Assembly (NCBI GenBank): GCA_027859175.1 | Contig: JAQIBG010000003.1 | Location: forward strand, 1-62,025 | Length of the DNA: 62,025 bases | DNA from: Planctomycetota bacterium | GTDB lineage: Bacteria > Planctomycetota > UBA11346 | Direction: 5' to 3' | Shown: piece by piece, positions 7,778 through 28,020 of the stretch | Layout: every line of letters starts with the position of its first letter | Position numbering within the stretch: position 1 is the stretch's first letter | The notes under the pieces: generated by a model | What the model saw: the letters and a program-made list of their open reading frames with translations, nothing else | Databases searched by the model: none | What the model was told of the DNA's origin: nothing | Translations under genes and position numbers: made by a program

Positions 7778-7778
7778 T

Positions 7779-9654: not shown

Positions 9655-12150
9655 TCAGATCCGAGCCCGACGCAAGCGCAAGGCATTGCCGATAACCGAG
9701 ACCGAGCTAAACGACATGGCCGCCGCGGCGATCATGGGGTTGAGCAAGAGCCCGAAAACGGGGAACAGCACACCGGCAGCAATCGGAATACCCAAGGCGT
9801 TGTAGGCAAAAGCAAAAAACAGGTTCTGGCGAATATTGCGCATGGTGGCACGGCTCAGGCGGCGGGCGCGCACAATGCCGCGCAAATCGCCCTTTACCAA
9901 AGTCACCCCGGCCGACTGCATCGCCACATCGGTACCGGTGCCCATGGCGATGCCAACCTGGGCCTGAGCCAGCGCCGGAGAGTCATTGATGCCATCTCCG
10001 GCCATGGCGACCGTTCGCCCTTCCGCCTGGAGACGCTTAACCGCGTCGACCTTTTGTTCGGGTAACACATCGGCAATCACCTCATCGATGTCGAGTCGCG
10101 CAGCCACCGCTTCTGCCGTGCGGCGATTGTCACCAGTGAGCATCACCACCCGCAACCCTTCGTGGTGCAGGTCGCGCAGGGCCTCAGCACTGGTTTCCTT
10201 GATCGGATCAGACACCGCCACCACGCCGGCCGCGCGTCCGTCGGCGGCCACAAACATGGCGGTGGCCCCGTCATCACGCAGGCGGTCGGCAACCTGTTCC
10301 AGCGCCTCCACCGCAACGCCCTCTTGGTGCATCAAGGCAAGATTGCCGAAGACCACGCGAACACCGTCAACAATGCCGATGACCCCCTTGCCGGTCACCG
10401 AATCAAACTCTTCGGCATCAACCAGAGCCAATTCGCGCGCCTCGGCACCGCGCACAATCGCAGCGGCAAGTGGATGCTCGCTGGCTTTATCAAGGCTGGC
10501 TGCCAAGCGAAGCACCTCCTCCGCATCGAAACCCGAGCTCGGCTCCACCGCCGTCAACTCAGGATGGCCACGCGTAAGCGTTCCCGTTTTGTCAACCAGC
10601 AAGGTGTCAACCTGCCGCATCACCTCAATCGCCTCGGCGTTCCGGAACAAAATACCAAGCTTGGCCCCCTTGCCGGTCGCCACCATAATCGACATCGGCG
10701 TTGCCAGGCCAAGCGCACAAGGGCAGGCAATAATCAGCACGCCGATCGCATTGACGAGGGCGAAGGCCAGCGCTGGGGCAGGGCCAAACGCGGCCCATAC
10801 GCCGAAAGTGATCACTGCGCTCAACACCACCGCGGGCACAAACCACGCCGCCACACGGTCGGCTAGGCGTTGGATCGGCGCGCGACTGCGCTGAGCCTCG
10901 GCAACCATCTGTACGATCTGAGCCAATAAGGTCTCACCACCAACCTTGCGGGCTTCCATGACCAATCCGCCGGTGCCGTTGATCGTAGCCCCAACAACAT
11001 GGTCACCGGGTGCCTTATCGACCGGCATCGCCTCGCCGCTTATCATAGACTCGTCAACCGTGCTGGTCCCGGAGAGCACCTCGCCATCAACCGGAACCTT
11101 TTCACCAGGCCGCACACGCAGATGGTCGCCAACTCGCACCTGATCGAGCAGTACGTCTTCGTCTTCGCCATCGGGGGTAATCCGCCGCGCGGTTTTTGCC
11201 GCCAGTCCAAGCAAAGACCGGACAGCAGCTCCAGTCGCATTGCGGGCGCGCAACTCGAGAACCTGCCCCAATAACACCAAGCTGACGATGACCGCAGCGG
11301 CCTCAAAATACACGGCCGGTCGACCAGATTCCTGGCGAAACCCAGCCGGGAAGATCCCAGGCGCTAAAACCGCCACGAGGCTGTACAGGTAAGCGACGCC
11401 AACACCGATACCGATGAGCGTAAACATATTCAATTTCATGGTGCGCAGCGAGCGCCAACAGCGCACGAAAAACGGCCAAGCACCGTAAACCACTACGGGC
11501 GTGGCGAGCACTAATTCCAACCAAGCGGCAAGTCCGGCCCCAAGCCAATTGCGGACTGGATGCCCAATAAGCATGTCGCCCATGACGTAGATCACGATCG
11601 GTACCGTAAAGACAAGGCTTACCCAAAAACGCCGCCGCATGTTCAGATATTCTGGATCTGCCTTCTGATCGGCGTCAGGGCGGTGTGGCTGCAAGGCCAT
11701 CCCGCAGAGCGGGCAGTCACCTGGCTGTTCGCGTTCGACTTCCGGATGCATCGGACAGGTGTACGTGCTTGCTGGGCCCGCAACGGGCTCGGATGCCTCA
11801 AGGGCCATGCCGCACTCAGGACACGAACCAGGACCCGCCTCACGGACCGCCGGGTGCATCGGGCAGGTATAGACCGCGGCATCGCCACGCTGAACCGGTT
11901 CACCCCCACGCGGAGCCTGGTCATGCGAGCCGTGCTCACCATGACAACAACCACCCTCCTGGGCCTCAGGTGCCTTTGGGTCCGCTGGCGCTGCGTAGCG
12001 CTGGGGCTCTGCTTCAAAGCGCTTCTGGCACGCACTGCTGCAAAAGCGCCAGTGTCGGCCATCGTAGTCGACCTGATGCGCGTCCGCTTCTTCATCGACA
12101 ATCATGCCGCACACCGGATCACGCTGGCCTGCGTCGTTCTGCTTACCCAT
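9655..12150 (-). CDS. copA: Cu(I)/Ag(I)-translocating P1B-type ATPase with an N-terminal TRASH/YHS module and two CPMHP...CPxCGM metal-binding modules
   Basis: P-type ATPase motifs: CPC ([13 protein letters not shown]), [17 protein letters not shown] and TGES-like SGEAMPV. The N-terminus carries [60 protein letters not shown] and [18 protein letters not shown]. No classical GMTCxxC HMA domain is present. Start taken at the internal ATG 12150. Confidence 0.9.
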
Positions 12151-12325
12151 GTTCTCGACTCCTCGTCGCCATGTGTACGTCCAACCAGCCTTGGCTAGCG
12201 GTTCCGAGTTCCATGAGATGGCAACCAACTTCACACAGAACGCGATCCTATCGCAACGTCAGCGTCCGCCGGGCGGGGGCCGTAAAGAACCAAGCTCAGC
12301 ACGCAACACCAACAACCCTACTCCA

Positions 12326-13795
12326 TTACGAATGAGCTGTCGCCTCCTCAGATGCCTGATGCTCATGCTCGTGCTCATGCTCGTGCTCGTGCTCGTGCCC
12401 GTGCTCGTGCCCGTGCTCATGCCCCTCGGGTGGCGGCCCTCGCAGGCGGAAATAGACCAACTCCATCACCAACAAGCCAAGCATGATAGCCAGGGCAACC
12501 GCCAGAATTGCGGGATCCTGCTCGAACTTGACAAGCAGGAAGCCACTCAAGACCAAGGCATCAAGACCGATCGCCGTCCAGAGAATCGCCGCACGCGGCT
12601 GCAACTCCTGTCGGAGATGCCGCCACACGCCCCAGTGCAACGCAATATCCATAGTAAGATAGAAAATAATGCCAAGAGCGGCAATTCGCGACAGGTCAAA
12701 AAAGGCCGTCAAAACCAGACCAAGCACAACCGTGTAGACGAGAGTGTGCTGTTGGATGTCACCTGGCATGCGAAAGTGGCTATGTGGCACCAATCGCATC
12801 TCGGTCAACATCGCCAACATGCGAGAGACCGCAAAGATACTTGCCAGCAGTCCTCCTGCCGTGGCCGTCATCGCCAGAATGACGGTAAACCACACGCCAA
12901 CATCACCGAGCACTGGCCGGGCAGCCGCAGCGAGCGCATAGTCACGTTTGGCGACTATCTCATCCAGCGACAGATTAACCACGACGGCAGCCCCAACCAA
13001 TCCATAGATCACGATACACAAGGCAATCGCGATGATAATTGCCCGACCAACATTGCGACGCGGATCAACGATCTCTGAACCACTATTGGTAATTGTGGTA
13101 AACCCTTTGAAAGCAAGAATACCAAGTGCTGTCGCGCCCAAGAACCCAGCTATCGACATGTCGCCCTCAGGACTAACAGTCGGAATGGCGCCCGACCACG
13201 ATTCAGCGAGTGTCAGGCCGACAATGGCAAATACCGCGATACCAACAACTTTGATCACGCCTAGAGACCCAGCGACACGACCAATCCACTTGGTCCCTGC
13301 CAGATTGACTGCAAACACTAGCAATATCAGGCCAACGCCAAGGCCAGGCACCAAGTAGCCGGCTGCGTCGCCAGCTCCCGGCCACAATTGCACGGCATAG
13401 GAGCCGAAGGTTCGCGCCAGGAAGCTTTGCGCAATCACCATAGAACTGTACATGAGCAGCGCATGAAAAGCGGTCGTCACGCTTGGGCCGTAGGCCTTCT
13501 CGAGAAACATCCCGATGCCACCAGCCGACGGGAACTTATGTGACAATAAGACATAAGAATAGGCGCTGAAACCAACAACGATTGCGGCAACCAGGAAAGC
13601 CACAGGGAACAAGGCCCCGGTCATGCCGGCCATCTGCCCAGTCAGGGCAAAAATACCGGCACCAATCATCACCCCAGTCCCTAGCCATACCGAGCCTGCC
13701 AGGGACAGCGAACCTTCGGCGTAGTCAGGGCTCTTGTTTTCCGCATTAGATTTCATCTGAGCTTTCACCTTCTTGTTGTCAACTGAGCCAAGCAT
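12326..13795 (-). CDS. APC-superfamily amino-acid/polyamine permease with a C-terminal (His-Glu/His-Gly)n tail
   Basis: About 12 hydrophobic segments. The N-terminal part, LSLAGSVWLGTGVMIGAGIFALTGQMAG, is typical of APC permeases. The tail reads PEGHEHGHEHGHEHEHEHEHEHEHQASEE. Confidence 0.85.
   Translation of the reverse strand: MLGSVDNKKVKAQMKSNAENKSPDYAEGSLSLAGSVWLGTGVMIGAGIFALTGQMAGMTGALFPVAFLVAAIVVGFSAYSYVLLSHKFPSAGGIGMFLEKAYGPSVTTAFHALLMYSSMVIAQSFLARTFGSYAVQLWPGAGDAAGYLVPGLGVGLILLVFAVNLAGTKWIGRVAGSLGVIKVVGIAVFAIVGLTLAESWSGAIPTVSPEGDMSIAGFLGATALGILAFKGFTTITNSGSEIVDPRRNVGRAIIIAIALCIVIYGLVGAAVVVNLSLDEIVAKRDYALAAAARPVLGDVGVWFTVILAMTATAGGLLASIFAVSRMLAMLTEMRLVPHSHFRMPGDIQQHTLVYTVVLGLVLTAFFDLSRIAALGIIFYLTMDIALHWGVWRHLRQELQPRAAILWTAIGLDALVLSGFLLVKFEQDPAILAVALAIMLGLLVMELVYFRLRGPPPEGHEHGHEHGHEHEHEHEHEHEHQASEEATAHS
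12359..12424. repeat. Hexanucleotide microsatellite, 11 units of (a/g)tgc(t/c)c, encoding the His-Glu/His-Gly tail
   Basis: Read directly from the sequence: atgctc atgctc gtgctc atgctc gtgctc gtgctc gtgccc gtgctc gtgccc gtgctc atgccc. Confidence 0.9.
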
Positions 13796-14015
13796 GCCGA
13801 AACACTCGACACCGCAGTCGGCCTATTCATCCGGGGTACTCCCAAGGCACCCTCAAGTGCCACCCCAACTCCTGCCGGAACGGTCATATCGCTCAGCTTT
13901 AACTATGTCACCGACGCCTGGATACTTCACCATAGTGTAGCCGTGCAGATCCATATGCGGGCGCGTTTTCAACTGACTCCGACAGGTCCGGGGCAAGCAT
14001 TCAAAGTAACGCCTG

Positions 14016-14897
14016 CTAAGGCAGGAAATAGTCACCTCCATAAATCAGTGATCCCCCGAAATGCCCAGCGATGGCAACCAGCACCGCCGTTGCGGAAACA
14101 GTCCAAAGCCATCCACGTGGCCGCGCAGGGCTGATGAGGCTACGACCAACGAAAATGCTGGATGCGAGCGCTAGGACGGCAACGGACGTCCCTGCCATTT
14201 GATGAGTCAACAGGATAGTCTCATTGCCAGGGTAGCTCGCTGAGGTCCACGTGGCCCAGCCAAACAGAGTCGCGATAAGCGCACTTGCGGTACCAACGTG
14301 GGTGCATACGAGTGCTGCATTGAGCACCCCCGTCACGGCCGGACGAACGACATGGACCCAGGCTAAGCCTGCTGCAAGCATCAACAAAGCCACAGGGAAG
14401 TGCACCAAAACAATATGAAACCGACCCAAGTAGGCTATCACGGCCCACACTCCGCTCTGTCCCCGATGGGTATCATGATCGTGAGAATCCTGCTCTGTAT
14501 GGTCGTCAGATCCTTCCCCTGCTTGATCGTCAGTGTCGTCAACCGACTTCACCCCTTCAATAGCGGCCCCTGGTTTCGCCTCATGACGGTCGCTATTCGC
14601 AGCATCGTCATGCGCGTGAACCGGCTCAGATTGAGCAGCCACTTGCTGGAGCTGCCAAGCACGCACATAGCGCGACGGGGCCTTCCTGAAGTCTCTTACG
14701 CAACCCCGACAGCAAACGCCATAAACAACACCGTCGTGCGTGACACTCAGCCCCGGAACAACCATTTCGTCAGTCGTCACAATACACATCTCATTTCCAG
14801 CTGACTCAACGACCGAGGCCGGAGCACTTGGAGCGAGCAGCACGACAAGAAGCAGTAACAAGAACTTCACGGATCCCCCCCTGCCAGTACGGCGCAT
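14016..14897 (-). CDS. Membrane protein: signal/anchor + TRASH/YHS-like module + His/Asp-rich linker + DUF2231-like 4-TM domain
   Basis: TRASH-like segment CIVTTDEMVVPGLSVTHDGVVYGVCCRGCVRDFRKAPSRY. Linker HAHDDAANSDRHE...GSDDHTEQDSHDHDTH. Membrane part FHIVLVHFPVALLMLA, followed by three more TM segments. Start taken at ATG 14897 (MRRTGRGGSVKFLLLLLVV). Confidence 0.65.
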   Translation of the reverse strand: MRRTGRGGSVKFLLLLLVVLLAPSAPASVVESAGNEMCIVTTDEMVVPGLSVTHDGVVYGVCCRGCVRDFRKAPSRYVRAWQLQQVAAQSEPVHAHDDAANSDRHEAKPGAAIEGVKSVDDTDDQAGEGSDDHTEQDSHDHDTHRGQSGVWAVIAYLGRFHIVLVHFPVALLMLAAGLAWVHVVRPAVTGVLNAALVCTHVGTASALIATLFGWATWTSASYPGNETILLTHQMAGTSVAVLALASSIFVGRSLISPARPRGWLWTVSATAVLVAIAGHFGGSLIYGGDYFLP

Positions 14898-14985
14898 GGA
14901 ACTCGGACATCCCCATGCCACAGCAATCCCCTACATGGCGAAAGCTGCAAGCAGACATACGTTTCGACAATCATCGCAAAGCGCC

Positions 14986-17900
14986 TCACGTGATAACCTT
15001 CCGTTCGTCCCCCGGGACTTCACCGATGCGTTCAACATCATTCTCGTCTGCTGCGCCCGGGTAGGTTCTCGCATGAATGAGGTACCAAATCACTGGGTAA
15101 AGGACCAACTCCGCGATAAAGCTGGTCGCTAGGCCGCCGATCATCGGAGCGGCCAAACGGCGCATGGTATCGGCACCAGCCCCCGCGCCCCACATCAAGG
15201 GCAGCAAGCCAATCATTGTGGTACAGACGGTCATCGTCTTCGGCCGTATACGCTGTACGGCGCCGTCGTGGATTGCCCACCACAGATCATCACGCGTGAC
15301 AAGACGCCCAGCTTTAGCAAACTTCTTGCAGCTATCCTCTAGGTAATGGAGCATTACCAATCCGGTCTCAGCATCGAGGCCAGCCAGGGCGATAATGCCA
15401 ACAGCAACTGCAACTGAGAAATTGTAGTCGAGCAAGTACAGCAGCCATACGGCGCCAATGGCACTGAACGGAACGGCAAGTAACACTATGCCCGTTTGGA
15501 TCCAGCTCCTCGTGGCCATGTAAAGCAGTAGCACAATTACCATAAACGCCAATGGAACGGCTACCATCAGCTTTGCATTGGCCTCTTCCATATATTCAAA
15601 CTGCCCTGACCAAATGATGCTATATCCTGGCGGTAGGGCGACCTTGCGGGCAATAACATCCTTGGCCTGAGAAACGTAGCCACCCATGTCGCTGATGTGA
15701 GGAGTCACATAGAGCCAGGACGTCGGCCGCGCATTTTCACTCTTGATCATGGGCGGACCCTTGCGCTCTGTAATCACCGCCAACTGACCGAGAGGGACCT
15801 GGGTTCCACCCGGCGTGCGAACAAGCACCTCTTTCAGCTGCTCAAGGTCCTCACGCAGTTCACGTGGATAGCGCAAGTTGACCGGGTAACGCTCTAATCC
15901 CTCAACAGTCCAGGTAACGGTCATCCCACCCAATGCAGTCATGATATGCGCCTGAACGTCGGCAACATCCAAGCCATATCGCTGAATCGCTAACCGGTCG
16001 ATGGCGATGTTGGTGTAATTTCCACCCGTAGCACGATCGGCGGCCACCGATGCTGTAATTGGAGCGATACCAGGATCCGTCCGTAGGACATTTTCGATCT
16101 CTTTGGTTACACTGCTGAGGACCTCCAAATCTGGACCCATAATCTTGACGCCAACGGGCGTCTTGATCCCGGTCGCAAGCATGTCAATCCGAGTTCGAAT
16201 CGGCATGGCACCGCGCGTCAAGGCGCCTGTTAGGCCAGGAATGCGCAGTACTTCATTCACGCCAGGAACCCAGGTACCGTTTGGCAATGCGTACCCATCC
16301 GTCAATTCATCGATAGTAATTGGACGATTATATCTAATTAGCCCCCACAACCACGTATCCTCACGTTGACGCCACTTCGACTTGTCCCGTTCCAGCGCAA
16401 TCGTTGTTTCTATCATCGTAAGGGGTGCAGGATCAGTCGCACTATCGGCACGACCCGCCTTGCCCATAACGCTGGCGACCTCGGGAAACTGAACCAGCAG
16501 CTTATCTGTCTGCTGAAGCAACTCCTTAGCCTTGGTGACCGACAAGCCGGGGTCGGTGTTCGGCATGTACAGGAAGTCACCTTCCTCAAGTGGCGGCATG
16601 AACTCAGAGCCAATTCGCGATGCCGGATACCATGTAACTGCAAACAAGACGACAGAAATGAGAATGACCGCATAACGAAAGCGCATTGCCAGGGCAAAGA
16701 CTGGGTTGTAAAGGACCTGAAGCAATCGCGACGTTGGATTCCGATCTTCTGGCAGCAGCCGCTGCGGCACGATGAGAACCAACGACAGAACTACCCAACT
16801 GATCGCCAATACCCCACGGTAAGAAGCCAAGCCAGCCATAGGAACAGAAAGAATCACCAGCGCTGGTAAAATGCTGATGGCGCCGGTGATGGCCCACGCC
16901 TTTCCGCGAGACCACGCCAGGGGGAGACTTCGCTCTGTTATAAACAAGCTCATTGCCACCGGGATCAGCGTAATTGAAAGAACCGCCGCAACACCCATCG
17001 CGAAGGTCTTCGTATAAGCCAATGGCGCGAACATGCGCCCGCTCTGTCCAGTCAAAACAAAGACCGGTATAAAACTAACCGTAATAATCAGCAAACTGAA
17101 GAACAGCGTCGGTCCAACTTCAGCAGCAGCATCAGCGATGACCGCCGAATTTGAGCGTTGAGGCGCACCCGCCGCGACGGCCTGCTTCTCTCGCTCCAGC
17201 GCATTATGGGCGTTCTCTACCATGATGATTGCAGAGTCCACCATAACACCGATGGCGATCGCTATGCCCCCTAGGCTCATAATATTGGCATTGATGCCCA
17301 GGACATGCATAAGGATCAAAGATCCGAGTACCCCCGTTGGCAACACCAATGCGGCAACAAGCGCGGACCGAGCATGAAGCAAAAACACAAGGACAATCAA
17401 CGAAACAACGAGAATCTCCTCAATCAACGTTCCCGTGAGCGTATGCACGGCACGGTTTATGAGGCCTGATCGGTCATAGGCCGTTACAACATCCACACCC
17501 GGTGGGAGCCCACCTTTGAGTTCGCCAAGGCGGGTCTTTACGCGCTCGATTGTTCGAAGCGCATTCTCGCCAAAACGCATCACAACAATCCCGCCAACGG
17601 TTTCGCCCTCGCCGTTCAACTCGGCAACACCACGGCGAATTTCGGGGCCGAGATTAACTGAGGCTACATCCCCAAGCGTGACGGGTTCTCCAGCAGATGT
17701 CACCTTGAGCGCGATCTTTTCCAGGTCAGAGATAACTCGCCGCCGGGACTCAGCAACAGCATCGATGCCGTCGCGGGCCGCCTCTTCAATCATCGCGTCG
17801 GTCAGTGTGCCCAAATAGCCTTGCCCAACGATCATGAACTCGGTCTCTGCTTGCTCAAGCAAGCGCCCGCCCACGTCTTGATTGCTTCTCTTGATAGCAT

Positions 17901-18807: not shown

Positions 18808-18811
18808 GATT

Positions 18812-21157
18812 CTACTTGACCTCTACTTCAATGAGACCCTCTGCGGTAGCCTTCCAAGATTCCATCGCGCAACCTGCCATCCCATGGCCGGCGCCAAAAT
18901 AGGGGTTCCTTATCGGCCCTGCCTCGCCCTGAAGCCAAACCCCCTTTTCAGGGACATCCCGAGCCATACCGCATCGATAGAAATTCACTCCATCAAAGGC
19001 GCCAGAACCAGCAGCAGCCGCATCGCGAACGGCAACCAAAACATGGCCAAATGCCACCCGTGCAGACTGCAGGTCAGAAGCCAAACTGATAGCATGGGCC
19101 TGATGCATGGCTGCCACCCAATTCACCCCAAGATCCTCCAGTGCCGTTTTCAGTTCTTTCCCAGCGGTTCTTGACTGCTCAAGATCATTCGCATACAGGG
19201 CCCGCTGCAGTGCCAGAACCATCTCGACGTGTTCAGGCTCAATTGAAATCAGCGCGCCAGTGCTCTGTTTTGCTGTGCCATCATCGGCCTCGTCCGAAGG
19301 CGCTTGTCTCTCACGCTCAGTGTCCGCCTGACCTGCCTTTGGAAGTGCCCATACCTCGGCCGCACAACTACGCATCTCTGACGAAGCGCCGTAATAGGGA
19401 TTACGCACATCATCCCCACGCTGCAGCCAGACGCCGCCCCTGGGAACACCCTCCGCCATACCACATCGCATTCCAACCACCGCACTCGCAAGCCCACTTG
19501 GCTGCCCAAACACTTTGAGCAAGCCGTTCATTGTGATGCTCAGATCTCCAAACCCAACACGCAGCGCCGGCATTGCATGGATGTTCAGCGCAACAGCCTG
19601 AGACTGTAAGGACGCGACATCTGGATATTTGTGGTGAAAGTGCTGATCTGCCTGTGTGCCAATGTCAACGAACTCTGCAACCGAGGCATGAAGGCTTGCA
19701 ACAGCCTCGCCAGTCATGCTGCCATCACCGTCATACAAGACCTCTTGAAGCGCCAGGTAACTGCGCACCACTTTCGCCCATGCCTCTTGTGCACCCCCGG
19801 GCAATTCAATTAGCGATCCCGCCTGCGGGGCCGGAGCCGGGGCCTGCTCTGTCGCCAGATCGCCCTTCATGATTTTCGCCAGAGCCTCACGCATCTTGCT
19901 CTCGCTATCGAGCAAGAACTGTCCGGAAGTAACGACCTGTTCGCCGGCCGTAATACCGTCCTGAATTGCAATGCGGCCATCTGATCCCTTCGGACCAAGC
20001 GTGACATCGCGAGGCTCAAATTTACCTCGCCCCAAACTTACGAAGACCACATTGCGAGAGCCTGTTCCGATAACAGACTCAGCAGGCACGGTGACTGCCT
20101 GGGCTGCTCGCAGTGATGGCATGAAGACCGTAGCAAACATACCTGGCTTAAGCACTGGGCCTTGCGGGCCATCCGCGTTCTCGAATACAAAGCGCACGCG
20201 CACCTCGCGAGTCTGCTGGTCAACTGCAGGGTATATACGCTCGATGCGCCCACTAAATTCGCGGCGTGCTCCGTAATCCATGCGCACCTGGGCTGTCTGC
20301 CCCAACGAGATGAAGGGTAACTGCTGTTCGTAAATGGTCGCCTCAACCCATACGCTGCCGAGGGCAACCAGTCTATAGGCTACGGTATTGGGCATTATCT
20401 GACTGCCCTGGTTAATATTCTTAGTCCAAACAACGCCGCTTACGGGTGATCGTATGGTCACGGTATCAGTGGCCGTTCCATCGCTCTGTAAACGAGACAG
20501 TTCCTCTGGAGGAAGTGCCATCAGCTTGAGTCGCTGCTCTGCCGCATCGAGCAGTTGTTCTTTGTGGGCGCTTTCGATGGCCTGGCTCGCAATGAGCCAC
20601 TCGCGTTCCGCTGTCAGCACCTGAGGCGCGTAAATACGAAAGAGCGGATCTCCTGCAGCAACGCGTGTCCATTTGGCATCTACATACATCTCCTCTATCC
20701 ACCCACCAAAGCGCTGGACGATGTCCGTAACCTGAGACTCATCGATTGTCACGGTGCCAACGGTTCGAACATCCCGAATGATGTCGCCGATCCGTGCCTC
20801 TGCGATACGCACGCCCATGTTCTGAACGATCACCGGGTCAATACTGATCTCCCCGGCAAAACGGTCGGGGTCAACCGGAGTCAGATCCATCCCGCAAATG
20901 GGACACTGACCCGGTTCAGGCTGAATGATCCAGGGGTGCATCTGGCTTATATACCACGTTCCAGACGCAGCCTTTTCTTCAACAGCAGCAGCCCGGTGCG
21001 AGTCGGCCCACGATTTGACCACAGGGCCGATCGCCACTCCTACGGTCATGGCTATTAGCGCAATGACCGCACAGATGACGATGATACGAAGTGATGGGCC
21101 ACGCGGCGGCTTACCACTATGGGTAGTCGGCGCAGAGGATGGGTTTCTTTCGGACAT
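18812..21157 (-). CDS. cusB: CusB-type periplasmic adaptor with an N-terminal metal-binding module and a 348-aa C-terminal extension (two DUF3347-like modules)
   Basis: N-terminal module WYISQMHPWIIQPEPGQCPICGMDLTPV (20873..20956). The barrel-sandwich/beta-barrel core extends to ...SGQFLLDSESKMREA. The extension spans 18815..19858. Start taken at ATG 21157 (MSERNP.. then a TM anchor), 13 nt after the cusC stop codon. Confidence 0.85.
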   Translation of the reverse strand: MSERNPSSAPTTHSGKPPRGPSLRIIVICAVIALIAMTVGVAIGPVVKSWADSHRAAAVEEKAASGTWYISQMHPWIIQPEPGQCPICGMDLTPVDPDRFAGEISIDPVIVQNMGVRIAEARIGDIIRDVRTVGTVTIDESQVTDIVQRFGGWIEEMYVDAKWTRVAAGDPLFRIYAPQVLTAEREWLIASQAIESAHKEQLLDAAEQRLKLMALPPEELSRLQSDGTATDTVTIRSPVSGVVWTKNINQGSQIMPNTVAYRLVALGSVWVEATIYEQQLPFISLGQTAQVRMDYGARREFSGRIERIYPAVDQQTREVRVRFVFENADGPQGPVLKPGMFATVFMPSLRAAQAVTVPAESVIGTGSRNVVFVSLGRGKFEPRDVTLGPKGSDGRIAIQDGITAGEQVVTSGQFLLDSESKMREALAKIMKGDLATEQAPAPAPQAGSLIELPGGAQEAWAKVVRSYLALQEVLYDGDGSMTGEAVASLHASVAEFVDIGTQADQHFHHKYPDVASLQSQAVALNIHAMPALRVGFGDLSITMNGLLKVFGQPSGLASAVVGMRCGMAEGVPRGGVWLQRGDDVRNPYYGASSEMRSCAAEVWALPKAGQADTERERQAPSDEADDGTAKQSTGALISIEPEHVEMVLALQRALYANDLEQSRTAGKELKTALEDLGVNWVAAMHQAHAISLASDLQSARVAFGHVLVAVRDAAAAGSGAFDGVNFYRCGMARDVPEKGVWLQGEAGPIRNPYFGAGHGMAGCAMESWKATAEGLIEVEVK

Positions 21158-21170
21158 ATTTGGCCCGTTC

Positions 21171-22577
21171 CTATTCAAGTTCACGGAGTTGCTGAATTGC
21201 ACTGCTGATAACGCCTGCTGACTGTAGGATGCGGGCTTCCGCGACACCGGCATCACGAGTAAGTCGGACAATACTCATCTCTAGCATCAGGAGCTGCTGT
21301 GCCGATTGAATGATGTCGGCGAAGCTACTTGTCCCCGCCATATAGTTGCTCGTTTCCGCTTGGTAGGCCTGCTTGGCCTGCTCAATCATCCCGCCGCGAA
21401 ACAATGCGAGTTGTTCATGGGCGCTTTCCCACCCGCTCAACGCGGTGCGCACATCACGCTTAAGGGTGTCTGAAATCGCCAGCCTCTCACTGGCCACCTC
21501 ATCACGAGCAGCTTCAGCCTCCCTGTCGCTGGCGCCATATGAGTCGAACCAAATTGGCAGACTCATGGAAGCCCCCACCCACCATTGATCCTGACCAGAG
21601 GTAGGCCCCATGAGGTTGCGGTCATCAACCATATTATAGTTGAAACTCAGGCCGAATTCTGGCCTGTGACGAGCTACTGCCATATTGCGGAGCGCGTCGG
21701 CTCGCTGCCGATTGGCAAGATTACCGAGAACGTCCGCGCGATACTGGCGGGCCAAAGGCAGCAATTGATCTTCTCTATATCGATTTTGAGATGGCAGCTT
21801 GTTGTGAATGTCTGGCAAAGGCTCTTCTTGTGGTAATGAGAGAGCTTGGCGCAGATTGGCCATGCTCGTTTGCGCTCGCTCATTCCAGGCCATCTGCATC
21901 GTTCGAAGTCGATCAATCTCAACGCCAATGCGCAAAACATCGCTTTGCTTTCCGCCCCCTACTTCAAGCCGTTGGAGAACCTGCTGTTGGAGTTGTGACA
22001 AAAGACTGATTTGCTCATCAACAATACTGTGACTGCGCGTAGCCGCCCTCCAACTCCACCATGCCTTACGAATTTCCGCAGCGATCTTGACTTGCTCAGC
22101 ATGCCAGGCTGCTTCCGCAGTACGGACATCGGCACGCGCCCGAGCCACTTGAGCACTCAAAAGACCTGGCGCCGGAAACTGCTGACTTACTCCCGCCATC
22201 AGCGCAACTTCACCGGCAGCCGTTTGTGCCATGTCACCGAATGGAGCCACCTGAATCTTCGGAGCGGGAAGACTGCCGGTGGCATCCACACGATGCGTCA
22301 TGCGATCGACGGCAATCGACTTGGCCTGCACCGCCGGATTGCGATCCAGCCCAAACAGAACCAACCCATCCAGATCAGTTGGTGCACGGTCCTGTTGGTG
22401 ATCATCATTCACCAGAGCGCTCGATGTCGGCGGGCCCTGCATGCGAGCGGTGCCCTCGGTCACCAAAGCCCGTTGCGAGTTTTCACTCTGAATCCTTCTC
22501 GCGCTCACCTCCCAAACCGGCGTACAAGCCGAAAAGAAGACTGCCAGGATGGCCGTGACCGTGACAGTAAAGCGCAT
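21171..22577 (-). CDS. cusC: TolC/CusC-family outer-membrane efflux protein
   Basis: 468 aa with a signal/lipoprotein-like N-terminus MRFTVTVTAILAVFFSAC. It has the two-repeat coiled-coil/beta-barrel OEP pattern and sits first of a cusCBA order. Confidence 0.8.
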   Translation of the reverse strand: MRFTVTVTAILAVFFSACTPVWEVSARRIQSENSQRALVTEGTARMQGPPTSSALVNDDHQQDRAPTDLDGLVLFGLDRNPAVQAKSIAVDRMTHRVDATGSLPAPKIQVAPFGDMAQTAAGEVALMAGVSQQFPAPGLLSAQVARARADVRTAEAAWHAEQVKIAAEIRKAWWSWRAATRSHSIVDEQISLLSQLQQQVLQRLEVGGGKQSDVLRIGVEIDRLRTMQMAWNERAQTSMANLRQALSLPQEEPLPDIHNKLPSQNRYREDQLLPLARQYRADVLGNLANRQRADALRNMAVARHRPEFGLSFNYNMVDDRNLMGPTSGQDQWWVGASMSLPIWFDSYGASDREAEAARDEVASERLAISDTLKRDVRTALSGWESAHEQLALFRGGMIEQAKQAYQAETSNYMAGTSSFADIIQSAQQLLMLEMSIVRLTRDAGVAEARILQSAGVISSAIQQLRELE

Positions 22578-22768
22578 GTTCCTGTTCCTTAAAAAAAGGC
22601 CCGATGAGGACCACCGCGAGCGCCAATGCCGGTTCCGCCAATCTCTGACGTATCGCCTACTGTGCGCTGCAAAGCGGGGCCCTCATGAGCCATCAACGGT
22701 CGAAAAACCGTTTTGTGCTGGACCATAAGCCCCGGTAGCGCCTTTAGTCGCAGCACCTCACAAAGAAG

Positions 22769-23158
22769 TCAGTCTTTATGTTTGTGCTCATCGTGCTGCA
22801 TCCCACCCGCGCCCTTTTCATGTGGCATGGTCGCCTTCTCGTGGGGCATGGGGCCCGATTCACCATGGGCCGCACCTTCCAGTCGCTTCATTTTCTTAAG
22901 ATAGAGGTCTGGTTGAGCTGCAAACTTTTTGATGCATCCATTACAGCAAACAGTCACCTCCTGACCTGCGTACACGAAGGAGCGTTCCATGCCCTTCATG
23001 CTTCCGATCGCTTCATCACTCACCAAGCAGGTGGCGATTGGATATGGGCGGAAGGTGACGATGGTACTTGGGTCAAGTGGGTCGCCCTCAACTGCACTGA
23101 GAGATGAAGTGGCAACGATAGCGAGTATCAGCGAAACCGCGACGTTAGTTGTGCGCAT
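22769..23158 (-). CDS. Small exported TRASH/YHS-like protein with a Met/His-rich tail
   Basis: GGAG lies 8 nt upstream of ATG 23158. Signal peptide MRTTNVAVSLILAIVATSSLSA. TRASH-like segment CLVSDEAIGSMKGMERSFVYAGQEVTVCCNGCIKKFAAQPDLY. Tail HGESGPMPHEKATMPHEKGAGGMQHDEHKHKD. Confidence 0.65.
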   Translation of the reverse strand: MRTTNVAVSLILAIVATSSLSAVEGDPLDPSTIVTFRPYPIATCLVSDEAIGSMKGMERSFVYAGQEVTVCCNGCIKKFAAQPDLYLKKMKRLEGAAHGESGPMPHEKATMPHEKGAGGMQHDEHKHKD

Positions 23159-23206
23159 GGAAGGACTCCTCATGGTGGTTCTGGTTACGCCATGAAAGGT
23201 CACCTA

Positions 23207-23222
23207 TGCACCGGCTGTTCCA
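23207..23222 (-). promoter_or_regulatory. Weak sigma-54-like -24/-12 element (TGGAAC-N5-GTGCA) upstream of the small TRASH gene
   Basis: On the minus strand TGGAACAGCCGGTGCA has the GG-N10-GC spacing of the TGGCACG-N4-TTGC consensus. It ends 48 nt before the ATG. This is a single motif match, and no activator gene is seen in the window. Confidence 0.2.
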
Positions 23223-23354
23223 TCGTTTGTCTGCCTATCACACTAGTCGCTAATCGAGTGGAATCTTATGCCATTGTCATTACATGGGTTACATACCATG
23301 ATCAGTAACGGTCTCCACGTACCCGCAAAGCCCTAGCAACCAAACTGGACCACG

Positions 23355-24041
23355 ATGGCGAGCTCACTCTTCCCCCCAACACGCTGGAGTCTCATTGATC
23401 ACATCGATGACCAACACTCGATGACCTTACTTCTCGAGCATTACGCTGATGCCCTGACTCGCTATCTGGGCAGCAAGTTCCCCGAAATGCGACGACGCGG
23501 TGACATCGACGATTTGGTTCAGGAAGTCTTATTGGCACTCATGAGGCAAGGCCATGTCTTGCAACGAGCGGATCCGGCTCATGGCGGCCGATTCCGCCAC
23601 TTCCTCATGCGCGTTGCCTACAATGCAGCGCGCAATGCGCGAAGGCGGCTCGATCGTCATCACTGGAGCCTACTGGCAGACGAGGCAGTGGCCGAGTGCG
23701 TTAACGATGATACTGAGGTCTTACACGAGACAGAAATGGACCGCGCTTGGGCAGAGAGCATCTTGCATCAAGCCTGGACCGAATTGCGTGCCTGGGCAGC
23801 GCAAGGACATATTGAAGCCGACGGCGTTGAACTCCTAGAGCGTAATCTTCTGAATAATCAGGCATTACGTAATGCAGCAGGCGAGATGGGGCTGAGTCTC
23901 GGCACAGCGCATCGTCGCATTGCCAAAGCACGCACCCTTCTGCGTCAGGCCGTCATTGAACACCTGCGCTTCACCGGCGAACTTATTGAAGGCAACGAAG
24001 ATGAAGCTTTTGATCTTTTGATGAAAGCACTCCAGATCTAA
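23355..24041 (+). CDS. ECF-type sigma-70 factor (ECF43-like, kinase-associated)
   Basis: N-terminal PPTRWSLI motif. Region 2 reads DDLVQEVLLALM ... FRHFLMRVAYNAARNARRR. Region 4 HTH reads AAGEMGLSLGTAHRRIAKARTLLRQAV. It is followed 44 nt later by a Ser/Thr kinase gene. Confidence 0.8.
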   Translation: MASSLFPPTRWSLIDHIDDQHSMTLLLEHYADALTRYLGSKFPEMRRRGDIDDLVQEVLLALMRQGHVLQRADPAHGGRFRHFLMRVAYNAARNARRRLDRHHWSLLADEAVAECVNDDTEVLHETEMDRAWAESILHQAWTELRAWAAQGHIEADGVELLERNLLNNQALRNAAGEMGLSLGTAHRRIAKARTLLRQAVIEHLRFTGELIEGNEDEAFDLLMKALQI

Positions 24042-24085
24042 TCGGGTATGGAACACTTTCCATAACAGGAACCTTTCTCCATACC

Positions 24086-26404
24086 ATGTCCACACCAATG
24101 AATGCCTGGAAACCGTCGGACGAAGACCTTGCGTCATACGTCCGCGGCGCTCTGCCCACCGTACGCTTTACTCAAGTAGATAATTGGCTGGCACAACAAG
24201 ATGAGGACATGGTCGCGGCACTCCTGGAACTGGCGAACGGAAGACAGGCGCCGTCATATGCCAGCACTAGTGACTCAGATTCGGGTACGTACAAGTCCAG
24301 CGGCCGGCATCGATTTACCATTGCCGAGAACATTGCCTCTGGTGGCATGGGGTCGATCGACTCCGTTTACGACGGAATCTTAGACCGGGATGTGGTCCTT
24401 AAGAGGTGCCACCCTCGCGCGCCAGACGAACCGGTCGAAACCCACCTTGAACGGCAACACCTATTCAGACTCGAGGCCCTTCTCACGGCGAGGCTCGAGC
24501 ATCCATCCATCATTCCAGTCCATGACTTTGGCCAGGATGAGTTCGGCGAACCAAGCATGGTCCTTAAAAAGCTCAATGGCCAGGATCTCATGCTTTACGC
24601 CAAAGAGCATCGCAAGAATGCCAACTGGTCCATTACTGAAGGGGTTGACATTGCCATTAGGGTCTGCGAGGCGATGGCTTACGCGCATGCGGCAGGCGTT
24701 GTTCACCGTGACCTAAAACCTGACAACCTCATTATTGGCGAGTATGGTGCGGTTACCGTCATTGATTGGGGACTTGCAGCCGCGATCAAGCCTGCGCCAG
24801 AATTATCAACAGACCAAGGCGACCATCCAACCGCAGCGCCAGTGGCCCCTGTTACCCACTTCTACGGAACCCCGGCGTGGATGGCGCCGGAACAGGCACG
24901 CGGAACGCCCGCTGATCCCCGCATGGACGTATGGGCTCTTGGAGGCATTCTCGCCTTCATGTTCACGGGGAAAGATCCGAGGAAGTTGCCGAAGCAATGT
25001 TCCCGCACAACTCTGGTTGAGACGATTCGCAATACCCCACCCAATGATCGGCGCTATTTCGAGGCGATGCCACCATCCCTGAGAGCCGTTGCGCAACGCT
25101 GCCTGGATCGCAACCCAGAGCACCGTTACCCACATGCGGGGGCCGTCTTGGCTGAACTTCGGCGATGGCTCAGCGACGGCATTACCGAGGCACAAAACCC
25201 TGGTCCAGTCCGGCGAGGAATGGCTCTGATCCGCCGCTACCGTGGACCAGTCATCGTTGCGCTCACTTCTATTCTGTTGATTGGCGCGTTCGCGCTTAGC
25301 CAGGTTTTGCACCACAGATACCACACTGCTTTTGCCGAAGAAACCGCCGCTCGACTACTTTCACAGACCCCCGTGCTTGATCTCGATGCGGTGGAAACAG
25401 CGCTCGTTCAGCTTGATGCAATGCGAGAACAATACGGCGACTTACCCGCAATTACCGCGGCGCATGGCCATTTCACCTCGGTTGCCAATGACCTACGCGA
25501 ACAGATTGCACTCGAAGACCTTGAAGCAAGGTTGACTGCAATTGAGACGGACACACGAATCCGAGGCCCCCAGGCCAGTCAAATCGCAACGCGAATGGCC
25601 TTACTCAACGATGCGGGCATTGACTGGGAAAATCCGTCCGCTCACACAAACCTGTCAGAGCACCCGCTAAGCGATGAACTTCTGGCCAACCTGGCAGCGC
25701 TAGAAGGCCTCCTTCTTCTGCACGATCGCAACCATGATGAACACCGCCACCAGCAGCATGAGCAGATACGTGATCTGTTCAGGTCAGCTTCGTCGTCTCC
25801 ACCCTGGACAAGTTTGGCCAGCATTTTGGAGGCTGCTCACGTACAACCTCACGACCTACACTTGCCCAATACCATCGATGATGACCTGTCGGCAGCACTG
25901 GCCCACCCCGTGGTCGCCGATGTGCTCTTACCAATAACAGCACCCGATGCCCGATTATTGGTCTATGCAACCAAGCGCCTGAACGACAATATTGGCGCCA
26001 ATATTGGCGCCTTCTGGCCACACATGCTGTTAGCACGCAGCTATTTGGTAGACGGACGCCTCAGCCAGGCAGAGAGGCATGCGCTCATCGCGCTCGGCAC
26101 TGAGCCCGACAGCTCGCTGCCAAAGCTCCTGCTCGCTTACGTAGCACTTGAACGATCTGATACCGTTGGATTTCAACAGTATTTCGAGTCCCTGAAAAAC
26201 GAAACGAATGAGAGTGTTGAGATACTTATCCTCAACGCTGCCTTTCTCGCAAAAAACGGGAAGACTGTTGCGGCGCAAGACGCAATTGACGCCGGCAATC
26301 CATGGGACCACCTGCGCTTGCATAGCCACGTTCACGCTCCACATCCAATGGACCGAAGCATTGCCGTTTTGAAGGCAGCAGGTGTAAGGTTGACTCCACC
26401 GTAG
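24086..26404 (+). CDS. Hanks-type Ser/Thr protein kinase with one TM segment and a TPR-like C-terminal domain
   Basis: Catalytic motifs: G-loop ASGGMGSIDSV, VVLK, HRDLKPDNLI, DWG (DFG variant) and GTPAWMAPEQ. TM segment VIVALTSILLIGAFALSQV. The C-terminal part consists of helical repeats. Confidence 0.9.
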   Translation: MSTPMNAWKPSDEDLASYVRGALPTVRFTQVDNWLAQQDEDMVAALLELANGRQAPSYASTSDSDSGTYKSSGRHRFTIAENIASGGMGSIDSVYDGILDRDVVLKRCHPRAPDEPVETHLERQHLFRLEALLTARLEHPSIIPVHDFGQDEFGEPSMVLKKLNGQDLMLYAKEHRKNANWSITEGVDIAIRVCEAMAYAHAAGVVHRDLKPDNLIIGEYGAVTVIDWGLAAAIKPAPELSTDQGDHPTAAPVAPVTHFYGTPAWMAPEQARGTPADPRMDVWALGGILAFMFTGKDPRKLPKQCSRTTLVETIRNTPPNDRRYFEAMPPSLRAVAQRCLDRNPEHRYPHAGAVLAELRRWLSDGITEAQNPGPVRRGMALIRRYRGPVIVALTSILLIGAFALSQVLHHRYHTAFAEETAARLLSQTPVLDLDAVETALVQLDAMREQYGDLPAITAAHGHFTSVANDLREQIALEDLEARLTAIETDTRIRGPQASQIATRMALLNDAGIDWENPSAHTNLSEHPLSDELLANLAALEGLLLLHDRNHDEHRHQQHEQIRDLFRSASSSPPWTSLASILEAAHVQPHDLHLPNTIDDDLSAALAHPVVADVLLPITAPDARLLVYATKRLNDNIGANIGAFWPHMLLARSYLVDGRLSQAERHALIALGTEPDSSLPKLLLAYVALERSDTVGFQQYFESLKNETNESVEILILNAAFLAKNGKTVAAQDAIDAGNPWDHLRLHSHVHAPHPMDRSIAVLKAAGVRLTPP

Positions 26405-26629
26405 CTAATAAAGATGCGCTGGAACACGACTGCCGCGTGAAATCTTCACCTATGCCGCAGGGCCTCTGGTACACCGTGAAGCAACCCAACAAATCCAGGA
26501 GTCGCCTGCGCTATAACGCAAGCCATTGGCCACAACCCCTCCTCCCAGCACCGCTGCCTGTCAGCACCACTAAGAGCTTCATAAGCTTACATTGGGTGCC
26601 CGCGACAAGGCCAGCGAGAGGTCCCAAAC

Positions 26630-26836
26630 ATGGCCGACTTAGAACGAACATTATCTCCTGATGGAATAACCCACGATCCCGTATGTGGTCGTCCTGTCGA
26701 CATGCAGACAGCGCCCATGGCGGCCTTTGATGGATGCTACTATTTCTGCGGCATGAAGTGCCGCGAAAAGTTTGTGCGCAATCCACACAAATATCTAATA
26801 CCGCCCTGCAGATCTTGCGCAAAACCAGCAGAGTAA
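26630..26836 (+). CDS. Small YHS/TRASH-domain protein
   Basis: HDPVCGRPVDMQTAPMAAFDGCYYFCGMKCREKFVRNPHKY matches the YHS pattern (DPVCGM.V......... G..Y.FCS..C...F...P..Y). Confidence 0.75.
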   Translation: MADLERTLSPDGITHDPVCGRPVDMQTAPMAAFDGCYYFCGMKCREKFVRNPHKYLIPPCRSCAKPAE

Positions 26837-26973
26837 TCTCTCCCCGCGTGGTCGGCGCAAAACGTAATCTGATAGCGCAACCTGCCCACCTCACATGCGC
26901 GCAGCACAGCCCAACAAGAGCCGACCCAGCAAGGCATGGGTCGGCATCTTTCGCCCCAAAAGGGCATTCTCGA

Positions 26974-27005
26974 CCACCTCCCCAGTTTAATTGCCAGGGA
27001 GGTGG
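26974..27005. terminator. Hairpin between the convergent YHS gene and the small secreted-protein gene
   Basis: 9-bp stem, ccacctccc (26974..26982) and gggaggtgg (26997..27005), with a 14-nt A/T-rich loop. Confidence 0.45.
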
Positions 27006-27014
27006 CGGATGACG

Positions 27015-27281
27015 CTAGCCTCGGTCATAAATAAAGTCGAAACCCTCCCAGAGCTCATCAGACTGCTTCTGTTTTGTGTCTTTGATCTGTTCCAGGGCCT
27101 GCCTGACCGCTTCAACCGTCGCGGCGTCGGCCGGGCGGGCAGACTCTTCCTTCGAGGCAGTGCATGCAGCACATGCAGCACATGCCATCTGTTTGCCCGT
27201 ATTGGCGGGAGCGGGGGCCTCGGCGGCGTTAATCGCCGTGCTCGCCAGGATTGCGGCGACAGTGATAATGATGGTGCGCAT
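27015..27281 (-). CDS. Small secreted protein with a C-A-A-C-A-A-C motif
   Basis: AAGGAG lies 6 nt upstream of ATG 27281. Signal peptide MRTIIITVAAILASTAINA/AE. The mature part contains GKQMACAACAACTASKEE, encoded by a 9-nt tandem repeat (gcagcacat x2 on the plus strand, about 27166..27186). No known family. Confidence 0.5.
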   Translation of the reverse strand: MRTIIITVAAILASTAINAAEAPAPANTGKQMACAACAACTASKEESARPADAATVEAVRQALEQIKDTKQKQSDELWEGFDFIYDRG

Positions 27282-27639: not shown

Positions 27640-28020
27640 ATGCATCGATTGGCCCCCCATGCTCGAACCCGACTGCTGCTGTGCCTGTGTTGGGGCTTGG
27701 CGATGAGCGCCTCACTCGGCGCGGCGGAAACTCTCCGCTACACCGGCGACCCAGCGGTGATCAACGACCAACTCCACGACGGTGGTCGGCACCACGCGGT
27801 TGGCGTCCATGAGCACGCGCTATTCCGGCCAACGCGCAATACCAGCACCGCCGCGGGGCCGATGCCGGGCAAGGGTGTAATCGCGCAGACCTTCCATCAC
27901 CACCAGTTCATGACCTACTGGAACGGTCGGTTCTACGTGTACTGGATCGGCTATAAGCTGGATGACGCCAGCAAGCGTGGCTACTTGGCCACCTCCACTG
28001 ACGGTCGTACCTGGAACCAA
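27640..28020 (+). pseudogene. 5' fragment of a secreted BNR/sialidase-like beta-propeller gene
   Basis: It has a signal peptide (RTRLLLCLCWGLAMSASLGA), then HHHQFMTYWNGRFYVYW and an Asp-box-like YLATSTDGRTWNQ. Protein-like character is lost after about codon 126, and the frame is overrun by the DUF1569 gene starting at 28079. Confidence 0.4.

Follow-up and report, generated by a model that had tools for sequence, protein, structure and literature searches.

Contig JAQIBG010000003.1 of a Planctomycetota bacterium (assembly GCA_027859175.1) carries a block of genes for copper and silver homeostasis at positions 9655-27281 of the window, i.e. of the whole 62-kb stretch of DNA (62,025 nucleotides, nt) that was analysed. 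In this block, a tripartite CusCBA-type efflux pump lies together with a copper-transporting ATPase, four YHS/TRASH modules and a pair of putative regulatory genes. The genes and features are as follows (window coordinates; lengths in amino acids, aa):

9655-12234, minus strand: CopA, P1B ATPase of the Cu(I) type; YHS module at the N-terminus, two HMBD repeats (Pfam, NCBIfam)
12326-13795, minus strand: amino acid-polyamine-organocation (APC)-superfamily permease with a C-terminal (His-Glu)n tail (AA_permease_2, 122 bits)
14016-14897, minus strand: TRASH-DUF2231, consisting of an exported CC-type YHS/TRASH module, an acidic/His-rich linker and a four-helix DUF2231 membrane domain
14986-18807, minus strand: CusA-type heavy-metal resistance-nodulation-division (RND) pump of 1273 aa with lineage-specific insertions (TIGR00914, CusA homology)
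18812-21157, minus strand: CusB-type adaptor with a membrane anchor, an HMBD, an HlyD_D23 core and a C-terminal extension of ~350 aa
21171-22577, minus strand: CusC-like outer-membrane factor (OEP, 96.6 bits over two stretches)
22769-23158, minus strand: small exported YHS/TRASH protein P0015, 129 aa; CC-type module and Met/His tail behind a signal peptide
23196-23221, minus strand: putative extracytoplasmic function (ECF)-type promoter GGAACA-N13-TGACCTT (motif common to other loci)
23355-24041, plus strand: ECF sigma factor, divergent from the small YHS gene (Sigma70_r2, 35.3 bits)
24086-26404, plus strand: Hanks-type Ser/Thr kinase of 772 aa with one transmembrane (TM) helix and an extracytoplasmic C-terminal domain (Pkinase, 115 bits)
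26630-26836, plus strand: stand-alone cytoplasmic YHS protein of 68 aa (DPVCGR…FCGMKC; YHS, 25.7 bits)

An earlier, sequence-only reading of this DNA had described seven co-oriented minus-strand genes with short gaps, and these are indeed present, from copA through the gene of the small exported protein (9655-23158). The gaps of 13 nt between cusC and cusB (with the cusB ATG at 21157) and of 4 nt between cusB and cusA hold as well, but the others are wider, at 191, 88, 220 and at least 91 nt. Missing from that gene list were the ECF sigma factor and the Ser/Thr kinase on the plus strand (23355-26404), and the stand-alone module had been misplaced: it is encoded at 26630-26836 on the plus strand, whereas the open reading frame (ORF) that closes the block, at 27015-27281 on the minus strand, encodes an unrelated protein of 88 aa. 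This latter protein is exported, contains the sequence MACAACAACTA (M-x-C-x2-C-x2-C), matches no Pfam family and has a G+C content at third codon positions (GC3) of 0.663. The 62-aa ORF at 13853-14041 is annotated as a gene in a public contig but has no features and was dismissed, and an Rfam scan of the window returned no RNA family.

The small exported protein belongs to a large family. An exhaustive HMMER search with P0015 recovered at least 1651 cluster representatives at E<=1e-3, many of them with 2-6 tandem copies of a ~55-aa module, and the source annotations call members 'YHS domain-containing protein'; among single-module relatives, 39 of 48 match Pfam YHS at E<=0.01. Y39, C44, M54, C71, C72 and C75 are invariant in the family, while His-rich tails are frequent, not universal. 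Exhaustive searching was needed here, as a word-index homology search with the small protein found only the protein itself; an exact-sequence look-up of P0015 gave no record, and a metagenome scan with the family alignment produced one weak locus.

To place the family in its genomic context, nine single-module lineages were sampled, chosen by similarity and by the amount of contig sequence. The small protein is encoded directly upstream of OEP, CusB and a long CusA in seven of the nine lineages (the window, L085, L087, L088, L094, L095 and L098) and beside a full-length kinase orthologue in six (the window, L085, L087, L088, L090 and L092). Outside the window, these loci and those of multi-module relatives are organised as follows:

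L085/L086: kinase, sigma factor, divergent small protein and OEP; a CusB with HMBD/DUF3347 farther away, beyond an inserted Czc-like operon
L087: kinase, sigma factor / small protein, OEP, CusB, CusA (62% identical to the window CusA)
L088: YHS-CopA / sigma factor, kinase / small protein, OEP, adaptor, RND
L094, L095: lipoprotein-type small protein, OEP, CusB (two HMBD, DUF3347), CusA (of 1314 aa in L094, incomplete at the contig end in L095); kinase absent
L098 (Kiritimatiellae): conventional ECF sigma factor, Metal_resist/LTXXQ protein, small protein, OEP, CusB, CusA of 1263 aa
L090/L091, L092: small protein, then kinase, amid housekeeping genes; no pump within 8 kb
L101/L102: multi-module relatives next to a multicopper oxidase and CopB
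L045, a Phycisphaerae metagenome-assembled genome (MAG): multi-module relative by a second TRASH-DUF2231, an exported HMBD protein and YHS-CopA

By gene order in these contigs, then, the core cassette of sigma/kinase genes and, divergently, exported His-tailed YHS protein-CusC-CusB-long CusA is one that recurs in Planctomycetota, Verrucomicrobiota and Kiritimatiellae. Downstream of the L085 kinase, a homologue of the 68-aa YHS protein was looked for and none was found. In L101 (4063-13357) and L102 (3470-11893), an exported YHS protein with four modules is encoded upstream of the multicopper oxidase and CopB, and the regulatory wiring is different: a STAS protein, a response regulator and a HAMP-SpoIIE phosphatase are encoded near the copper genes, along with a DUF2231 protein in L101.

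The genes transcribed divergently from the small YHS gene are a likely source of control. With 41.5 bits, the sigma factor lies just under the TIGR02937 cutoff of 42.9; L085, L087 and L088 each have an orthologue (39-57% identity) at the corresponding place. Sigma factors of all four loci have in common an N-terminal FPxTRWSL motif, with invariant T9 and S12, as well as a sigma-2.2 motif of the form D-(I/L/V)-D-D-L-x-Q (D-I-D-D-L-V-Q in the window), in which D52 and D53 are invariant. Membership in group ECF43 was considered and rejected, since the acidic sigma-2.2 motif is kept, whereas ECF43 loses its DAED (PMC8999054). Sigma factor and kinase are adjacent in the window and in L085, L087 and L088, and no anti-sigma Pfam domain was found in the neighbours of the pair. 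Full-length kinase orthologues occur in L085, L088 and L090, and the kinase of L090/L091 and L092 is 36% identical over 751 aa, including an HPM(D/E) motif. This forms part of the C-terminal motif H-x3-H-x6-H-P-M-(D/E), in which H742, H746, H753, P754 and M755 are invariant and which is a candidate metal site. Kinase-regulated ECF sigma factors as such are established, and kinase-linked ECF groups with kept acidic motifs are known in Planctomycetes, their mechanism being uncharacterised (PMC8999054, PMC7826278).

Upstream of the small gene, a common promoter motif, G[AG][AG]ACA-N12-13-[CT]GACCTT, is found in L087, L088, L090 and L092, 22-63 nt before the start codon, and the pattern can be derived from these four loci without the window. 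The entire 62-kb window contains a single match, at 23196-23221 on the minus strand and 38 nt upstream of the small gene, against 0.005 expected in shuffled sequences. L094 and L095, both of which have no kinase, do not have the motif. Its layout, with an AAC-containing element about 16 nt from a GAC-containing one, resembles that of ECF promoters and so may mark a target of the adjacent sigma factor. Two further elements were noted in the same intergenic region: the direct repeat TTACAT-N3-TTACAT and the inverted repeat GTTAC-N12-GTAAC overlap each other at 23280-23309 on the plus strand, 45-75 nt ahead of the sigma gene, and a sigma-70-like match, TTGTCA-17-CATGAT, is located at 23274-23302. 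Together, they may constitute an operator or promoter of the sigma/kinase genes. On the other side of the small YHS gene, a weak terminator-like hairpin with a stem of 5-6 bp followed by T7 (22598-22616, minus strand) lies in the gap to cusC, immediately ahead of the cusC start; it could set a high ratio of chaperone to pump or be meaningless.

The presence of this pair bears on what the block does not contain. As the sequence-only reading had pointed out, classical heavy-metal-associated (HMA) domains, CusF, CueR and CusRS are absent: a GMxCxxC HMA motif occurs in no frame, and neither MerR/CueR nor OmpR-type CusRS proteins are encoded among the scanned ORFs. The same ORFs gave no CusF-family match, small ORFs of <60 aa not having been scanned exhaustively. 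CusRS and CueR are probably missing because the co-located ECF sigma/Ser-Thr kinase pair takes their place.

That the block handles copper and silver, as had been proposed, is borne out by CusA, whose Met triad is kept, and by CopA, which matches the copper P1B-ATPase subfamily model; both pump and ATPase are ordinary members of known families. CusA passes TIGR00914 with 1025 bits (cutoff, 701) and scores 993 bits against E. coli CusA (3K07/3T51), the triad M573/M623/M672 of which corresponds to M748/M798/M876 in the window; the TM4 motif is AIGVMVDSAIIMVEN. HlyD_D23 and OEP genes adjoin the RND gene, fitting CusB and CusC. In Pfam, CusB reaches 215.6 bits for HlyD_D23 and 36.4 bits for HMBD, but only 154.6 bits for the NCBIfam CusB subfamily model (cutoff, 390) and is thus not an equivalog. 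Its C-terminal extension holds two DUF3347-like repeats of the type C-G-M…NPY(F/Y)G…M-x2-C, at 19364-19465 and 18869-18973. Homologous CusB proteins of L085, L094 and L095 do carry DUF3347 matches, but the window CusB stays under the threshold of that model (20.7 versus 25.5 bits), with no match when the extension is scanned alone. Pfam searches restricted to sub-regions found nothing for the CusB extension or the CusA insertion, and PDB sequence searches gave no match for the CusB extension or for the extracytoplasmic domain of the kinase.

CusA itself is unusually built, being ~220 aa longer than E. coli CusA. A periplasmic insertion of ~100 aa (18070-18372, minus strand) starts with YCPDHPEG and ends with RCPLSGQPL, resembling a split HMBD motif, and a 58-aa insertion after TM6 (16762-16935, minus strand) contains two additional hydrophobic segments. 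Similarly long CusA proteins, of at least 1195 to 1314 aa, are encoded in L087, L094 and L098.

The YHS/TRASH modules tie these genes together. The sequence-only reading had seen the same module in four contexts, and all four of the peptides it quoted could be located. In their alignment the residues G, C, C, F, P and Y are invariant, and each module shows the pattern C-x(19-27)-C-x3-C followed by F-x3-P-x2-Y. When compared with the Pfam YHS model (PF04945; curated cutoff, 30.3 bits), the CopA module scores above the cutoff with 52.4 bits, but the remaining three fall below it: the stand-alone protein has 25.7 bits (E=1.1e-5), the small exported protein 17.9-18.1 and the DUF2231 fusion 16.4, with E-values of 1e-5 to 9e-3 overall. 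Besides the stand-alone protein, the modules are located at ~11989-12120 (CopA), 14688-14786 (DUF2231 fusion) and 22922-23029 (small exported protein). An AlphaFold2 (AF2) model of the small protein's module, the one of the four that was modelled, has a pLDDT of 80-93, and its top Foldseek matches in the PDB are the YHS-bearing alpha subunits of phenol/toluene monooxygenases (probability 0.97-0.99 at a weak E of ~0.08), with ribosomal L24e and the TRASH domain of ZMYM5 (2das) among the other matches. Alignment and predicted fold together indicate that the four modules are real relatives of YHS/TRASH.

They appear to be of two kinds. Cytoplasmic modules of the form DPVCG(M/R)…FC-x3-C are found at the CopA N-terminus and in the 68-aa stand-alone protein, for which no signal peptide was detected; extracytoplasmic ones, located behind signal peptides in the small protein and the DUF2231 fusion, read C…CC-x2-C and thus have a fourth cysteine added. 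To judge from the loci compared, repeated YHS modules are a habit of copper loci in bacteria of the Planctomycetes-Verrucomicrobia-Chlamydiae (PVC) group, where they recur, and not a peculiarity of the window.

Three more proteins complete the minus-strand genes around the pump. CopA, with a likely true start at the ATG at 12150, has YHS, two HMBD, E1-E2_ATPase and Hydrolase as its Pfam domains and scores 586 bits with TIGR01511 (cutoff, 397). Its translation holds CPC, DKTGT, YN and MxxSS motifs, which are those of P1B-ATPases specific for Cu(I). Just beyond CopA, the stretch 5162-8724 encodes a two-component pair of the NarL/LuxR type, with the response regulator at 5162-5959 and the HisKA_3 kinase at 5836-6993, as well as a Dps/ferritin protein (8077-8724).

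Orthologues of the APC permease with 51-56% identity are encoded close to YHS-CopA in L015, L064 and L082, which suggests an APC permease subfamily with a previously unrecognised link to copper export. The orthologous genes, at 7242-8582 in L015, 13230-14540 in L064 and 18-497 in L082, are within a few kb of YHS-CopA; their hosts are one Phycisphaerales MAG and two sphingomonad MAGs, and the (HE)n tail is missing in L015.

TRASH-DUF2231 passes the DUF2231 model by a small margin (26.9 versus a cutoff of 26.4 bits), and its AF2 model is a four-helix bundle with a pLDDT of 85-95. H161, H166 and H232, located in membrane helices, are invariant among its homologues. The same architecture is present in P0002, the only other close TRASH-DUF2231 (41% identity; a multicopper oxidase gene follows it), and in L045 at 15061-16032. 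Most DUF2231 homologues (P0004, P0007 and P0009-P0014), in turn, bear a planctomycete cytochrome c domain (PF07635, CxxCH), usually at the place of the YHS-like module. These fusions and the invariant His residues might hint at a role of DUF2231 in electron transfer, and one could speculate about a haem-binding carrier. Structure searches with DUF2231, by PDB profile and by Foldseek on the confident model, returned generic helical bundles only, and a literature search for its function gave one paper that mentions the domain, with nothing on its role. A 3.2-kb public contig (L004; Logan SRR22875242) encodes proteins 100% identical to those of the window over the cusA 3′ end, TRASH-DUF2231 and the APC 5′ end, which means that the same organism was sampled in that run.

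Taking these observations together, the block is probably a Cu/Ag efflux operon under kinase/ECF control that opens with the gene of a periplasmic YHS protein acting as chaperone and/or co-sensor, the whole forming a self-contained PVC-type cassette beside YHS-CopA. In such a system, the transmembrane Ser/Thr kinase would sense periplasmic metal via its extracytoplasmic domain, with the His/Met motif as the candidate site, and, by analogy with kinase-regulated ECFs, would activate the adjacent sigma factor. The latter would then transcribe the small YHS gene together with cusCBA from the bipartite promoter, as motif and gene order suggest; co-transcription would have to extend across the 191-nt gap with its weak hairpin. 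The small protein is expected to bind Cu(I)/Ag(I) via a Cys3(+Cys)/Met site and its tail, and may fill the role of CusF by feeding the pump, report the metal load to the kinase, or both. CusA would extrude the metal via its Met triad, and CusB may contribute extra periplasmic metal sites through its HMBD and the two DUF3347-like Cys/Met repeats. CopA would clear the cytoplasm, aided by the YHS module at its N-terminus and perhaps also by the 68-aa YHS protein as a CopZ/CopM-like chaperone, with TRASH-DUF2231 and the His-tailed APC permease as presumed accessory components, the former possibly serving redox chemistry or hand-over close to copper in the periplasm. In a bolder form, which we put forward tentatively and hold to be possible rather than probable, the exported YHS protein and the Hanks-type kinase would make up an undescribed extracytoplasmic Cu/Ag sensor that drives the ECF sigma factor and the Cus pump, i.e. 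a PVC-wide alternative to CusRS/CopRS and CueR/CsoR, with the small protein doubling as chaperone.

Several observations weigh against this proposal. Three of the four modules score under the Pfam YHS cutoff, and the four cysteines of the exported ones could form disulfides in the oxidising periplasm instead of binding metal. The acidic sigma-2.2 motif is kept, so that the charge-by-phosphorylation mechanism of ECF43 is not directly transferable (PMC8999054). The promoter motif is degenerate in L085, and upstream of the sigma, cusC, DUF2231, APC and copA genes no such motif is present. Finally, the context sample is small, comprising nine lineages.

What the small exported YHS protein does could also be read differently. 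It is conceivable, if rather doubtful, that it mainly acts as sensing partner of the kinase, be it as a ligand-binding co-sensor or as a feedback inhibitor, and not as a CusF-like chaperone. In L090/L091 and L092 the small gene, with the same promoter motif, directly precedes the kinase and has no pump within 8 kb, and adjacency to the kinase (6/9) is about as common as adjacency to the pump (7/9). In L094, L095 and L098, however, the small gene opens a pump operon that has no such kinase, as would fit a pump accessory, and sensing and pump roles are not mutually exclusive.

The origin of the cassette is a separate matter. Sliding-window GC drops from 0.61 to 0.54-0.57 from ~12.0-12.5 kb until ~27.0 kb, and the tetranucleotide distance shifts across the same span as GC3. 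For the nine genes inside, from the APC permease through the 68-aa YHS gene (~12.3-26.9 kb), GC3 is 0.567±0.037 (maximum, 0.616; the 68-aa YHS gene alone, 0.478), compared with 0.732±0.044 (minimum, 0.663) for the 27 genes outside, without overlap (Mann-Whitney p=5e-6). The sequence-only reading, which had regarded 12.3-27.6 kb as compositionally foreign, was therefore right about a step, which is real and delimits ~12.3-26.9 kb, but for foreign origin it is composition that speaks. Likewise, the lower-GC segment includes the block from the APC permease through the 68-aa YHS gene, but not CopA (GC3 0.673). These data suggest, and make it plausible, that the cassette (12.3-26.9 kb) came by horizontal transfer from a lower-GC relative; composition is the evidence, because neither a mobility signature nor a close relative among the CopA matches was found. 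A scan of genome contigs with CopA had returned 80 loci over many phyla, with 54-63% identity in near- or full-length matches and up to 67% in partial ones.

Weighing against transfer, the window has no tRNAs, only chance-level repeats, no flanking repeats and no integrase (as had been noted before, neither integrases nor transposases are among the annotated genes), the segment shows no plasmid similarity except for a 212-nt RND stretch, and the closest cassette found, L087, lies on a contig of 71% GC. An explanation that does without a recent arrival is that the segment is a long-resident region of different composition or belongs to a larger, older acquisition that includes CopA. We think this somewhat unlikely. 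It would agree with the lack of mobility genes, tRNA and flanking repeats, with the GC3 of the genes just outside (Dps; hyp288, a 288-aa ORF; CopA; exp88, the 88-aa exported protein), which at 0.66-0.69 is the lowest of the 'host' set, with the APC-CopA pairing, which spans the proposed border and is seen elsewhere too, and with the occurrence of the cassette in contigs of 51-71% GC, as if it tracked its host. Yet the separation of GC3 from the 27 other genes is complete (p=5e-6), and at both ends the steps are sharp, within ~0.5 kb. As to the right border, where a truncated gene had been reported, the gene from 27640 to ~28030 is of host-like GC and is cut at its far (3′) end, off the junction. 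On the plus strand, it represents about the N-terminal third of a BT_1020-like beta-propeller gene, with nonsense from ~28030 and an overlapping DUF1569/DinB-like gene at 27962-28519. This looks like the scar of a deletion or rearrangement of its own, which has nothing to do with the GC border.

Less favoured still is the notion that the exported CC-type modules are structural, i.e. disulfide-stabilised or Zn-binding knuckles for protein-protein contacts, with metal bound by the His/Met tails instead. This is unlikely in our view: while four cysteines do sit in an extracytoplasmic domain, His-rich tails are common in the family if not universal, and L24e and MYM zinc fingers, relatives with the TRASH fold, bind Zn or nothing, Met54 is invariant beside the three canonical YHS cysteines, the family consistently sits in copper loci and a YHS domain of another protein has been linked to the sensing of copper (PMC4626032). 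That the pump exports divalent cations (Zn/Cd/Co) and not Cu(I)/Ag(I) is highly improbable, for although both kinds of heavy-metal-efflux (HME) RND pump have the same operon layout and a second, Czc-like RND operon lies within the window, the Met triad and the AIG…DSA…VEN form of TM4 match CusA, the DFG…D…VEN form belongs to the other pump, and ZneA yields only 370 bits compared with 993 for CusA. The second operon (35407-41752, plus strand; host-like GC3 of 0.69-0.74) consists of an OEP gene (35407-36675), a CusB/CzcB-like adaptor gene (37130-38572) and the gene of a 1028-aa pump (38666-41752), whose TM4 motif AIDFGLIVDSSVIMVEN looks Czc-like. The DFG…D…VEN form is typical of HME-RND pumps for divalent cations.

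If the proposed kinase/ECF-controlled efflux cassette is set beside known systems, E. coli CusCFBA is the obvious counterpart. Both are tripartite pumps of outer-membrane factor, adaptor and RND protein, with homologous CusA proteins that have the Met triad and with a small periplasmic protein in the operon. However, in the window the accessory slot of CusF is held by an exported YHS/TRASH protein with a His/Met tail, which is encoded first in the operon; CusB lacks the Met site at the N-terminus and bears an HMBD plus two DUF3347-like repeats in its stead; and the regulator is apparently an ECF sigma/Ser-Thr kinase pair and not CusRS. The archaeal cop clusters (CopT/CopR, CopM, CopA), as known from Sulfolobus, also combine stand-alone and fused TRASH/YHS modules next to CopA, and the 68-aa window protein resembles archaeal CopM in size and in its DPVCG motif (PMC3595675). 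In contrast to these clusters, the window is bacterial, exports two of its modules, includes an RND pump and has no DNA-binding regulator that bears a TRASH domain.

With regard to regulation, an ECF sigma factor beside a transmembrane Hanks-type kinase and without a recognisable anti-sigma factor is also seen in EcfP/PknT of Vibrio and EcfK/PknS of Xanthomonas, both of group ECF43, and in the planctomycetal groups ECF59-62 and ECF217 (PMC8999054, PMC7826278, PMC13147305). Whereas known kinase/ECF systems act in polymyxin resistance or on the type VI secretion system, the predicted target of the window pair is a metal efflux operon. In this respect it resembles CorE of Myxococcus, an ECF sigma factor for copper-resistance genes (PMC8999054), as is predicted here; unlike CorE, which senses the metal itself, the window sigma factor has no Cys-rich C-terminal extension and is paired with a kinase. 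For the YHS module, the adenylyl cyclase of M. phlei offers a parallel, its YHS module having been proposed to sense copper via conserved cysteines and thereby to control a signalling enzyme (PMC4626032). In the cyclase, the module forms part of the enzyme itself and lies in the cytoplasm, unlike the candidate sensor module of the window, which is exported as a protein of its own.

In three respects the cassette departs from the described systems: in its accessory set (exported YHS protein, HMBD and DUF3347-like repeats on CusB, TRASH-DUF2231), in being apparently controlled by an ECF/kinase pair, and in that PVC bacteria carry this combination repeatedly. A full-text literature search, incomplete in its coverage and hence giving absence of evidence only, found no paper in which CusCBA is tied to either a periplasmic YHS protein or a kinase/ECF pair.

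The efflux of copper and silver by Proteobacteria is well understood, but it has barely been studied in PVC bacteria. For the latter, the cassette points to an alternative parts list, in which YHS/TRASH, HMBD and DUF3347-like modules stand in place of HMA domains and CusF. Similarly, the signals and targets of planctomycete kinase/ECF pairs are largely unknown, and the window pair brings with it a plausible signal (copper/silver), a defined target gene and a candidate promoter. The large family of exported YHS proteins, to which the literature searched assigns no role, thereby gains a first functional context, and recognising the cassette would help to annotate metal-resistance potential in environmental metagenomes.

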